DNA of 47,090 nt from the sequence record NC_019723.1; one strand, given 5' to 3'. The notes under the pieces are model-generated. The model worked only from the letters and a program-made list of their open reading frames with translations, was not told the origin of the DNA and searched no databases. The position numbers were made by a program, and so were the translations under genes. This document shows, piece by piece, positions 24,321-26,785 of this stretch (positions are counted from its first letter, which is position 1; every line of letters begins with the position of its first letter). The stretch is from Escherichia phage HK630.

Positions 24321-25211
24321 CTAGATCCCTCTGAAAAAATCTTCCGAGTTTGCTAGGCACTGATACATAACTCTTTTCCAATAATTGGGGAAGTCATTCA
24401 AATCTATAATAGGTTTCAGATTTGCTTCAATAAATTCTGACTGTAGCTGCTGAAACGTTGCGGTTGAACTATATTTCCTTATAACTTTTACGAAAGAGTT
24501 TCTTTGAGTAATCACTTCACTCAAGTGCTTCCCTGCCTCCAAACGATACCTGTTAGCAATATTTAATAGCTTGAAATGATGAAGAGCTCTGTGTTTGTCT
24601 TCCTGCCTCCAGTTCGCCGGGCATTCAACATAAAAACTGATAGCACCCGGAGTTCCGGAAACGAAATTTGCATATACCCATTGCTCACGAAAAAAAATGT
24701 CCTTGTCGATATAGGGATGAATCGCTTGGTGTACCTCATCTACTGCGAAAACTTGACCTTTCTCTCCCATATTGCAGTCGCGGCACGATGGAACTAAATT
24801 AATAGGCATCACCGAAAATTCAGGATAATGTGCAATAGGAAGAAAATGATCTATATTTTTTGTCTGTCCTATATCACCACAAAATGGACATTTTTCACCT
24901 GATGAAACAAGCATGTCATCGTAATATGTTCTAGCGGGTTTGTTTTTATCTCGGAGATTATTTTCATAAAGCTTTTCTAATTTAACCTTTGTCAGGTTAC
25001 CAACTACTAAGGTTGTAGGCTCAAGAGGGTGTGTCCTGTCGTAGGTAAATAACTGACCTGTCGAGCTTAATATTCTATATTGTTGTTCTTTCTGCAAAAA
25101 AGTGGGGAAGTGAGTAATGAAATTATTTCTAACATTTATCTGCATCATACCTTCCGAGCATTTATTAAGCATTTCGCTATAAGTTCTCGCTGGAAGAGGT
25201 AGTTTTTTCAT
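24321..25211 (-). CDS. ea31: Ea31, predicted HNH-family endonuclease
   Basis: 296 aa; motif CPFCGDIGQTKNIDHFLPIAHYPEF...NLVPSCRDCNMGEK (CxxC...DH...N...CxxC); start overlaps the ea59 stop by 4 nt. Confidence 0.88.
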   Translation of the reverse strand: MKKLPLPARTYSEMLNKCSEGMMQINVRNNFITHFPTFLQKEQQYRILSSTGQLFTYDRTHPLEPTTLVVGNLTKVKLEKLYENNLRDKNKPARTYYDDMLVSSGEKCPFCGDIGQTKNIDHFLPIAHYPEFSVMPINLVPSCRDCNMGEKGQVFAVDEVHQAIHPYIDKDIFFREQWVYANFVSGTPGAISFYVECPANWRQEDKHRALHHFKLLNIANRYRLEAGKHLSEVITQRNSFVKVIRKYSSTATFQQLQSEFIEANLKPIIDLNDFPNYWKRVMYQCLANSEDFFRGI

Positions 25212-26785
25212 TGTACTTTACCTTCATCTCTGTTCATTATCATCGCTTTTAAAACGGTTCGACCTTCTAATCCTATCTGACCATTATAATTTTTTAGAAT
25301 GGTTTCATAAGAAAGCTCTGAATCAACGGACTGCGATAATAAGTGGTGGTATCCAGAATTTGTCACTTCAAGTAAAAACACCTCACGAGTTAAAACACCT
25401 AAGTTCTCACCGAATGTCTCAATATCCGGACGGATAATATTTATTGCTTCTCTTGACCGTAGGACTTTCCACACGCAGGATTTTGGAACCTCTTGCAGTA
25501 CTACTGGGGAATGAGTTGCAATTATTGCTACACCATTGCGTGCATCGAGTAAGTCGCTTAATGTTCGTAAAAAAGCAGAGAGCAAAGGTGGATGCAGATG
25601 AACCTCTGGTTCATCGAATAAAACTAATGACTTTTCGCCAACGACATCTACTAATCTTGTGATAGTAAATAAAACAATTGCATGTCCAGAGCTCATTCGA
25701 AGCAGATATTTCTGGATATTGTCATAAAACAATTTAGTGAATTTATCATCGTCCACTTGAATCTGTGGTTCATTACGTCTTAACTCTTCATATTTAGAAA
25801 TGAGGCTGATGAGTTCCATATTTGAAAAGTTTTCATCACTACTTAGTTTTTTGATAGCTTCAAGCCAGAGTTGTCTTTTTCTATCTACTCTCATACAACC
25901 AATAAATGCTGAAATGAATTCTAAGCGGAGATCGCCTAGTGATTTTAAACTATTGCTGGCAGCATTCTTGAGTCCAATATAAAAGTATTGTGTACCTTTT
26001 GCTGGGTCAGGTTGTTCTTTAGGAGGAGTAAAAGGATCAAATGCACTAAACGAAACTGAAACAAGCGATCGAAAATATCCCTTTGGGATTCTTGACTCGA
26101 TAAGTCTATTATTTTCAGAGAAAAAATATTCATTGTTTTCTGGGTTGGTGATTGCACCAATCATTCCATTCAAAATTGTTGTTTTACCACACCCATTCCG
26201 CCCGATAAAAGCATGAATGTTCGTGCTGGGCATAGAATTAACCGTCACCTCAAAAGGTATAGTTAAATCACTGAATCCGGGAGCACTTTTTCTATTAAAT
26301 GAAAAGTGGAAATCTGACAATTCTGGCAAACCATTTAACACACGTGCGAACTGTCCATGAATTTCTGAAAGAGTTACCCCTCTAAGTAATGAGGTGTTAA
26401 GGACGCTTTCATTTTCAATGTCGGCTAATCGATTTGGCCATACTACTAAATCCTGAATAGCTTTAAGAAGGTTATGTTTAAAACCATCGCTTAATTTGCT
26501 GAGATTAACATAGTAGTCAATGCTTTCACCTAAGGAAAAAAACATTTCAGGGAGTTGACTGAATTTTTTATCTATTAATGAATAAGTGCTTACTTCTTCT
26601 TTTTGACCTACAAAACCAATTTTAACATTTCCGATATCGCATTTTTCACCATGCTCATCAAAGACAGTAAGATAAAACATTGTAACAAAGGAATAGTCAT
26701 TCCAACCATCTGCTCGTAGGAATGCCTTATTTTTTTCTACTGCAGGAATATACCCGCCTCTTTCAATAACACTAAACTCCAACAT
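25208..26785 (-). CDS. ea59: Ea59, predicted ABC/AAA-type ATPase
   Basis: 525 aa; Walker A GRNGCGKTT, Walker B LVLFDEPEVHLHP, H-loop IATHSP; about 190 aa of N-terminal region precedes the ATPase. Confidence 0.88.
   Translation of the reverse strand: MLEFSVIERGGYIPAVEKNKAFLRADGWNDYSFVTMFYLTVFDEHGEKCDIGNVKIGFVGQKEEVSTYSLIDKKFSQLPEMFFSLGESIDYYVNLSKLSDGFKHNLLKAIQDLVVWPNRLADIENESVLNTSLLRGVTLSEIHGQFARVLNGLPELSDFHFSFNRKSAPGFSDLTIPFEVTVNSMPSTNIHAFIGRNGCGKTTILNGMIGAITNPENNEYFFSENNRLIESRIPKGYFRSLVSVSFSAFDPFTPPKEQPDPAKGTQYFYIGLKNAASNSLKSLGDLRLEFISAFIGCMRVDRKRQLWLEAIKKLSSDENFSNMELISLISKYEELRRNEPQIQVDDDKFTKLFYDNIQKYLLRMSSGHAIVLFTITRLVDVVGEKSLVLFDEPEVHLHPPLLSAFLRTLSDLLDARNGVAIIATHSPVVLQEVPKSCVWKVLRSREAINIIRPDIETFGENLGVLTREVFLLEVTNSGYHHLLSQSVDSELSYETILKNYNGQIGLEGRTVLKAMIMNRDEGKVQ

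Follow-up and report, generated by a model that had tools for sequence, protein, structure and literature searches.

The ea59-ea31 gene pair of Escherichia phage HK630 is probably a mobile, Septu-like ATPase-nuclease cassette of the PDC-M01 family

We analyzed the adjacent genes ea59 and ea31 in a 47,090-nucleotide stretch of DNA from Escherichia phage HK630 (NC_019723.1), hereafter called the window. A sequence-only reading had proposed that they encode a translationally coupled ATP-binding cassette (ABC)-type ATPase and an HNH nuclease with a Septu-like defense architecture. Both open reading frames (ORFs) were found on the minus strand exactly where this reading had placed them: ea59 at 25208-26785 (525 amino acids) and ea31 at 24321-25211 (296 amino acids). 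Sequence comparison located the pair at the same coordinates in Escherichia phage HK629 (JQ182735 / NC_019711). Several lambda stocks match the segment 24321-26785 at 100% identity, and reference lambda differs from it by one base. At window position 25474 (ea59 codon 438), a Val is encoded in the window, in HK629, and in several lambda stocks, and a Met in reference lambda (J02459 / NC_001416); V438 lies within the motif SCVWK and is conserved in at least 90% of the family.

The junction between the two genes reads GAAGGTAAAGTACAATGAAAAAA. The TGA stop codon of ea59 and the ATG start codon of ea31 share the four nucleotides ATGA at 25208-25211, which is the 4-nt overlap reported earlier, and GAAGG precedes it. 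The two genes form a coupled two-gene operon. The pair sits in an island of 37% guanine plus cytosine (GC): the fraction is 0.364 in ea59, 0.378 in ea31, and 0.571 in the left arm (the first 20 kb of the window), so the AT-rich setting was described correctly. The claim that the genes are dispensable for lytic growth also stands, as ea47, ea31, and ea59 of lambda all scored as non-essential in a genome-wide CRISPR interference (CRISPRi; clustered regularly interspaced short palindromic repeats) screen.

Nucleotide identity of 93% to islands of Klebsiella and Kosakonia spans window positions 26918 to 24143, and the flanks are unrelated (blastn and alignment). The edges of this homology fall 133 bp upstream of the ea59 ATG and about 180 bp past the ea31 stop codon. 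The pair is a discrete 2.78-kb mobile cassette, at window 24143-26918. The features of the locus are the following:

26786-26918, minus strand: 133-bp 5' leader carried along with the two genes (alignment and blastn, 93% identity; homology to the Klebsiella and Kosakonia islands stops at its upstream edge).
25208-26785, minus strand: ea59, encoding a 525-amino-acid ABC-type ATPase (ORF, PADLOC, Pfam, invariant motifs, AlphaFold2 model, Foldseek).
25208-25211, minus strand: ATGA stop/start overlap, translational coupling (read directly; relatives have ATGA, TAATG, or GTGA at this junction).
24321-25211, minus strand: ea31, encoding a 296-amino-acid zinc-finger HNH nuclease subunit (CxxC...DH...N...CxxCN) with family-specific helical N- and C-terminal regions.
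24143-24320, minus strand: 3' tail of about 180 bp, likewise carried along with the genes (blastn and alignment; its end is the downstream homology edge, and ea47 lies outside).
27349-27389, minus strand: hairpin and T-run of tI/sib, context outside the cassette (exact match and fold; between the attP core and ea59; a block to leftward transcription that is not antiterminated).

The nucleotide-binding motifs of Ea59 were all located as quoted by the sequence-only reading: Walker A (GRNGCGKTT, residues 195-203, with lysine K201), Walker B (LVLFDEPEVHLHP, residues 387-399, with D391/E392), and the H-loop (IATHSP, residues 422-427, with H425). An ABC signature, absent from that reading, was found at 364-368 (MSSGH, with SSGH at 365-368). 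All four motifs are invariant across 45 homologs. Ea59 is an ABC ATPase with an intact Walker A, Q-loop region, signature, Walker B including the catalytic E392, and H-loop. The presence of the signature motif implies an ATP-dependent head-to-head dimer of the ATP-sandwich type.

The AlphaFold2 model of Ea59 has a predicted local distance difference test score (pLDDT) of 84 and a predicted template modeling score of 0.82. In this model, the N-terminal strands of the ABC fold itself begin at about residue 155; an additional N-terminal domain is thus present, as had been proposed, although it covers about residues 1-150 rather than the roughly 190 residues first suggested. This domain is conserved among the 45 homologs, with invariant D26, W28-N29-D30, K55, and others, and it gave no match in Pfam, NCBIfam, or the PDB sequences. 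A weak match of residues 88-136 to SarX (E 0.006) was taken as chance. The model also places a helical insert of about 80 amino acids (283-362) where Rad50/SMC proteins carry their coiled coil. A further stretch, residues 455-475 (window ~25361-25423), is near-invariant in the family (E456, T457, F458, E460, G463, L465, T466, E468, F470, L472, and E473), has the lowest model confidence (pLDDT 43-60), and aligns with retron PtuA; it is a candidate partner or substrate interface.

In Ea31, the zinc-finger HNH motif is present at the residues quoted earlier: CPFCGD at 108-113, DHFLP at 121-125, and NLVPSCRDCN at 138-147. Residues C108, C111, H122, N138, C143, and C146 are invariant in 83 relatives with identities down to 29%. 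Judged by these residues, which include a CxxC...CxxC zinc site and the catalytic histidine, Ea31 is a nuclease of the HNH ββα-metal type, and its predicted active site is intact. The single sequence gave no Pfam match and, among solved structures, only grazed an HNH protein and PtuB (E 0.09-0.5). With the family profile, 4h9d (1.8e-4) and retron PtuB (7.7e-4) were reached, the alignments being confined to the HNH core. Among the 83 family members, 68 touched the Pfam HNH model (best E-value 8.6e-6), 36 touched TIGR02646 (1.3e-6), and 28 touched the NCBIfam PtuB model (5.4e-5). Ea31 itself falls under both curated cut-offs (TIGR02646 and NCBIfam PtuB); with TIGR02646 it scores 13.5 bits (E 0.055), where 52.15 is required. 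When the Ea31 family was aligned by hhalign to a PADLOC-typed Klebsiella PtuB (PDLC00328, 4e-113), the match had a probability of 95.7% and an E-value of 1.1e-8 over 68 columns. PtuB models are absent from the best 25 PADLOC matches of Ea31, any PtuB match being weaker than 1.4e-12. The best 25 PADLOC matches for the Ea31 HNH core and for eight divergent relatives are likewise filled by PDC-M01B models. In PHROGs, both proteins are listed as phage families, that of Ea31 under the name HNH endonuclease.

The closest assignment for both proteins is the PADLOC family PDC-M01. Ea59 matches PDC-M01A (PDLC04235) at 8e-202 over residues 3-521 of 525, and Ea31 matches PDC-M01B (PDLC04256) at 5.8e-113 over residues 1-294 of 296. 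Both matches are thus full-length, the genes are adjacent and coupled, nothing differs from the family in sequence terms, and relatives from Bacillus to E. coli receive the same PADLOC assignment. Hidden Markov model searches of Ea59 against Septu- and OLD-type models also returned one PtuA model end to end (PDLC00282, 8.8e-185), while other PtuA, AriA, and retron I-A ATPase models in PADLOC covered only ~80-130 residues around the signature and Walker B. Pfam AAA_21 and AAA_15 scored above cut-off, and the NCBIfam PtuA equivalog, whose cut-off is 500 bits, scored 49.7. Among solved structures, PtuA of retron Ec78/Eco7 is nearest by sequence (9e-5, C-terminal half only), followed by OLD and AriA, and a family profile left this picture unchanged. 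In a Foldseek search of the PDB with the Ea59 model, the top 36 hits were retron or Septu PtuA chains, with GajA and OLD appearing later. The E-values were 2.6e-9 for retron PtuA and 3.5e-7 for E. coli Septu PtuA 8eea (also 8ee4 and 8sux). The TM-scores (template modeling) were low, at 0.25-0.37, as is to be expected when proteins have several domains and mobile inserts.

The ATPase is therefore PtuA-like, and the nuclease has a PtuB-type HNH core but differs elsewhere. In a survey of the Bacillus cereus group, PADLOC called 41 loci both Septu and PDC-M01. That the pair is a newly recognized member of PDC-M01, or of Septu in the broad sense, is well supported, and no new principle is involved. 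Of the PtuA/PtuB layout that had been proposed, the ATPase-then-HNH order is conserved and the PtuA side holds, in both model match and fold; membership of the nuclease in PtuB does not, given its TIGR02646 score.

Comparison with known systems places the pair more precisely. Like stand-alone Septu (8EEA, 8EE4, 8SUX; EcB88), it consists of two co-oriented adjacent genes, the ATPase followed by the HNH gene. Ea59 is an ABC protein of the AAA_15/AAA_21 kind, recognized end to end by one PtuA model, and the HNH core of the C-x2-C ... [DE]H-x-x-P ... NL-x-PSC-x-DCN flavor is also found in Ea31. Sequence similarity between solved Septu PtuA proteins and Ea59 is restricted, however, to the signature-to-H-loop stretch. 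The functional residues are K201 and D391 in Ea59 but K43 and D316 in EcB88, with ~150 extra N-terminal residues in Ea59, and the earlier statement that Ea59 is not a canonical PtuA is borne out by both the lysine position and the added domain. Ea31 differs from Septu PtuB in being 296 amino acids long, with unrelated flanking domains, and in falling under the PtuB family thresholds. Compared with the PtuAB proteins of type I-A retrons (Ec78/Eco7, Ec83), Ea59 has a shorter insert between Walker A and Walker B and a different N-terminal domain. A type I-A retron was rejected, as no reverse transcriptase ORF lies in 22-28 kb of the window and no retron RNA family was found in 22000-28000. OLD (6p74), Gabija GajA (8sm3), and PARIS AriA belong to the same ABC-ATPase clade as Ea59, but the nuclease of OLD and GajA is a fused Toprim domain and that of AriA is AriB, a separate Toprim protein, whereas in ea59-ea31 it is a separate HNH protein. 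These systems were also rejected, since no Toprim domain appears in the Pfam or PADLOC matches and the similarity concerns the ATPase only.

The two genes travel together. Our genome scan, with one genome per species, yielded 37 loci, more than half of which were lambda DNA in assemblies of unrelated organisms. In 13 of the 13 complete and distinct non-lambda loci (Ea31 identity 35-92%), an Ea59 relative abuts an Ea31 relative, and the identities of both proteins drop in parallel (95/92, 69/64, 53/49, 52/40, and 46/36). The pairing also holds in every further context examined, namely prophage ends, islands, and bare insertions. The only unpaired copy is a 5'-truncated, frameshifted ea31 remnant without the ATPase in a metagenome-assembled genome of Alteromonadaceae (L038 10001-10640). 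A free-standing HNH homing endonuclease was rejected on these grounds: wherever an Ea31 relative is intact (35-95% identity), an Ea59 relative stands directly in front of it, and the one copy found alone has decayed to a fragment. Chance does not account for the ORFs, because the search with Ea59 returned more than 7,600 relatives, Ea31 relatives fill 3,161 clusters at 50% identity at E ≤ 1e-3 (1,397 at E ≤ 1e-10), nearly all of 280-295 amino acids, and the ratios of nonsynonymous to synonymous substitution rates (dN/dS) against the Klebsiella allele are 0.09 for ea59 and 0.16 for ea31. Such ratios also indicate that purifying selection has kept both genes functional. Decay was seen in two further places: an IS2 insertion in the lambda allele of E. 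coli ATCC BAA-196, and a 5'-truncated ATPase gene beside insertion sequence (IS) elements at the icd site (L041).

The contexts of the cassette are diverse. In E. coli and its relatives, a pair 64-69% identical to that of lambda lies between icd (a lambdoid prophage attachment site, attL) and int, convergent with int and bracketed by terminator-like hairpins; another E. coli carries a 39%-identical allele in the same icd-int slot. In Vibrio parahaemolyticus, the pair occupies an integrase/DUF3987 island and adjoins DUF4297-HerA (PADLOC 6.5e-169 and 4.9e-38; L043 10935-13920). A CP4-57-like island of Klebsiella (L047 1583-4647 and 8427-10891) contains the lambda-type allele at a distance of 4 kb from a typed Septu (PtuA 1e-283, PtuB 4e-113) and near ScoMcrA-type HNH genes. 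The typed Septu there encodes a 717-amino-acid PtuA, whose N terminus also matches PtuB models, and a 302-amino-acid PtuB. The co-occurrence of a typed Septu and a lambda-type cassette in one island suggests that the two are not redundant. In Aeromonas and Shewanella, the cassette stands alone between housekeeping genes, a bare insertion without an integrase in the vicinity, and divergent pairs are found on 116 plasmids, including those of Streptomyces, Bacillus, Clostridium, and rhizobia. The lambda allele itself was detected in 91 of 5,426 complete E. coli genomes, the listed records being mostly lambda lysogens or laboratory strains. A lambdoid prophage on the E. coli plasmid pSM107_MCR (L057 1060-4593) retains J, lom, a tail-fiber gene, tfa, and ea47, and three unrelated genes without PADLOC matches replace ea59-ea31 between int and ea47; this replacement marks the slot next to att as a variable cargo position. 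The pattern is that of a defense-island or prophage-cargo gene pair, whose natural home is not lambda; the phage is an unusual carrier.

Sharp edges and scattered locations would also be expected of a selfish nuclease cassette, homing- or addiction-like, that persists by spreading or by punishing its loss and brings its carrier no benefit. The 2.78-kb unit shared at 93% identity by lambda, Klebsiella, and Kosakonia within unrelated flanks fits this explanation, as do the integrase-free insertions between housekeeping genes, the common use of HNH enzymes as homing nucleases, and the annotation of Pfam AAA_21 as the AbiEii toxin family. We nevertheless consider it improbable. An obligatory 525-amino-acid ATPase partner with a conserved extra domain is atypical of homing endonucleases, neither a target-site duplication nor an intron or intein context was seen at the cassette, copies do decay (the IS2 and other IS insertions and the frameshifted remnant), and selection on both genes is strongly purifying.

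The 'Ea' names reportedly come from Hendrix's catalogue of early proteins made after infection, and the lambda endonuclease of 1982, reportedly found in a DNA-packaging laboratory, is said to consist of 59K and 31K polypeptides and to need ATP. That enzyme was purified in 1982 (Benchimol et al.; PMID 6279662), and later papers call it single-stranded-DNA-dependent and ATP-dependent; a table from 2023 annotates ea59 as 'ATP-dependent endonuclease'. Zhou et al. (1994; PMID 8052130) described a gene for resistance of Streptomyces lividans 66 to phage phiHAU3, which the title of their paper likens to the lambda ea59 endonuclease gene. By the title's account, then, an ea59-like gene confers phage resistance, according to its discoverers. 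One Ea59 relative with 54% identity bears the transferred name 'phage Hau3 resistance protein'. The sequence-only reading overlooked this prior literature, both the 1982 endonuclease and the 1994 Streptomyces gene. No paper naming both Septu and ea59 was found in the literature searched, and most papers that name both ea59 and ea31 treat the locus as a disposable insertion site. Knowledge of the genes and of a nuclease activity dates from the 1980s; the present analysis is a well-supported re-reading of old genes rather than the description of a new kind of system.

The position of the cassette in lambda bears on when it could act. A 41-nt hairpin with a T-run at 27349-27389 (coding strand; -24.3 kcal/mol, z -6.2), the strong tI/sib terminator of established lambda biology, lies between the attP core (27536-27550) and ea59. 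No sigma-70-like site stands out between this hairpin and the ea59 ATG in a consensus scan. In scans upstream of ea59 and of two relatives, sites were no more frequent than expected by chance, and the leader had none. Neither the conserved leader nor the 3' tail showed a significant RNA fold, and no Rfam family was found in or next to the cassette. In a K-12 lysogen (L056), the gene order is bioB> <bioA <ybhB (attR) <ea59 <ea31 <ea47, so that bioA-ybhB point into attR towards ea59. This order means that integration cuts the cassette off from pL, and only host read-through surviving tI could reach ea59. With tI/sib and attP between the cassette and upstream transcription, an early lytic product is suggested rather than a lysogen function, and Ea59 and Ea31 are probably products of N-antiterminated pL transcripts, made by phage that is infecting or has excised and not by a resting lysogen. 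The gene order favors action during lytic growth, or mere carriage. Prophages at the icd site and islands cannot use pL and need a promoter of their own, which the consensus scans of two relatives did not find.

Lytic expression invites three other explanations. In the first, lambda would use a Septu-like machine in its own lytic development, made from pL transcripts that run past tI/sib and silent once integration severs pL; a bacterial 'defense' cassette would have been repurposed as an offensive weapon against other phages or mobile elements. This is possible, although we regard it as doubtful. In the second, the complex would serve lambda lytic DNA metabolism in the manner of SbcCD/Rad50-Mre11, by supplying Red recombination with breaks, by processing intermediates of replication or packaging, or by attacking the DNA of the host or of plasmids. 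The location of the genes behind attP and tI, which implies early, N-dependent lytic expression, is in keeping with such a role, and so are the single-stranded-DNA dependence attributed to the 1982 enzyme in later papers, its reported origin in a DNA-packaging laboratory, and the logic of an ABC ATPase with a nuclease that is common to Rad50-Mre11. It is unlikely all the same, as the genes are non-essential with no growth defect on knock-down, lambda is reported to leave host DNA undisrupted, the cassette thrives in islands, plasmids, and bare chromosomal sites that lack phage replication or packaging genes, and its neighbors are defense systems. In the third, the nuclease would act early in counter-defense or host takeover, destroying retron multicopy single-stranded DNA (msDNA), transfer RNA (tRNA), a plasmid-borne system, or a resident satellite. 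Early lytic expression, as suggested by the gene order, would suit this function, and PtuAB-type complexes elsewhere bind msDNA or act on tRNA; yet most family members reside in bacterial chromosomes, islands, and plasmids, where anti-defense makes little sense, and they sit beside defense genes. We consider this last explanation highly improbable.

The reading that we prefer, with a probability of about 60%, is that ea59-ea31 is a self-contained mobile Septu-like nuclease machine of the PDC-M01 family, carried by lambda and HK629 as non-essential cargo. In lambda, it would likely have a defense or exclusion role. Ea59 and Ea31 would form one complex, which would be the lambda endonuclease of 1982. 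Lying downstream of attP and tI, the cassette would most likely be expressed by way of N-antiterminated pL transcription, either in the early phase of infection or following excision, and not by the resting prophage. In Ea59, which would serve as sensor and switch, the N-terminal domain and the ATP cycle would answer a trigger such as foreign or single-stranded DNA or a phage protein; the N-terminal domain, and perhaps residues 455-475 too, may sense the trigger or hold Ea31. The ATP cycle would then license nucleic acid cutting by Ea31, either of DNA or of tRNA as in some Septu systems. Competing phages or mobile elements would be stopped in this way, and the cell itself might be sacrificed. 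What is described for Septu and retron PtuAB suggests DNA (by nicking) or tRNA-Tyr as possible targets and arrest of the infected cell as a possible outcome. In Septu, phage restriction needs the Walker and HNH residues, the proteins assemble as PtuA6:PtuB2, and the nuclease is inhibited by ATP; stand-alone PtuA has been reported to be inactive as an ATPase.

Several points weigh against this reading. A yeast two-hybrid map of lambda reported no contact between Ea59 and Ea31. By sequence, Ea31 is not a member of the PtuB family, and outside the HNH core of ~68 residues it does not align with PtuB. PDC-M01 is itself a computational candidate family, known in the literature searched from two surveys only. 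Ea59 keeps the catalytic E392 and the lambda enzyme has been called ATP-dependent, in contrast to ATP-inhibited Septu, so that the control logic may differ and is possibly opposite. Among 50,697 phage records, the cassette was found only in lambda derivatives and two gut-virome contigs. An abundant early nuclease with no immunity gene in its cassette raises a self-targeting problem. Finally, expression from the prophage is doubtful given the tI hairpin and the lack of a promoter in our scans, which weakens a classical role in protecting the lysogen. The proposal of a phage-borne defense or superinfection-exclusion module thus fares well with respect to its defense-type family and neighbors but poorly in its lysogen version, since attP and tI/sib separate the cassette from upstream transcription.

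Other features of the window and of the databases were recorded on the side. The gene ea47 (22498-23757, minus strand) was rejected as a third component, since it accompanies the pair in lambda copies only and lies outside the shared cassette. The window is most AT-rich where ea47 lies (GC 0.315 for 23001-24000), and the gene has no Pfam, NCBIfam, or PADLOC match. Its distant relatives (24-30% identity) are found on plasmids of Acidithiobacillus, Streptomyces, Nocardia, and Arthrobacter, and it looks like a second, independent cargo gene. An Rfam match to IS009 (RF02111) lies at 22128-22326 (plus strand), between the tail-fiber region and ea47, with 224 bits against a gathering score of 117. 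Identical (100%) lambda ea31/ea59 DNA was present in assemblies of unrelated organisms, among them Pseudomonas, Shewanella, Streptomyces, Oceanobacillus, Chromatium, and Fusobacterium, often as low-coverage contigs of ~48.4-48.5 kb (scan loci L002-L014, L016, L017, L025, L026, L029, L032, and L037). Three 'plasmids' of 48,499-48,502 bp from Salmonella, Stenotrophomonas, and Paenibacillus (NZ_CP082339.1, NZ_CP104294.1, and NZ_CP068597.1) are lambda DNA, and 'Campylobacter phage CJLB-4' (MW057783.1) also carries identical lambda DNA. These stray copies look like control-DNA contamination or mislabeling.

Although no temperate phage has been studied better than lambda, the genes of its b region have still to be given a biological role. 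Prophage-borne defense is a routine idea and PADLOC already flags the pair, so the surprise for specialists should be moderate. Placing ea59-ea31 in a very large family nevertheless offers a cheap and tractable entry to an uncharacterized Septu-like branch that sits beside known defense systems. It also raises the questions of why a phage would make a nuclease of this kind at an early stage of its own lytic growth and how cutting of its own DNA is avoided. Should the use of the machine as a lytic weapon prove true, the reported dependence on ATP and single-stranded DNA would identify the trigger for the whole PDC-M01 branch, and the N-terminal domain of Ea59 would be its sensor.

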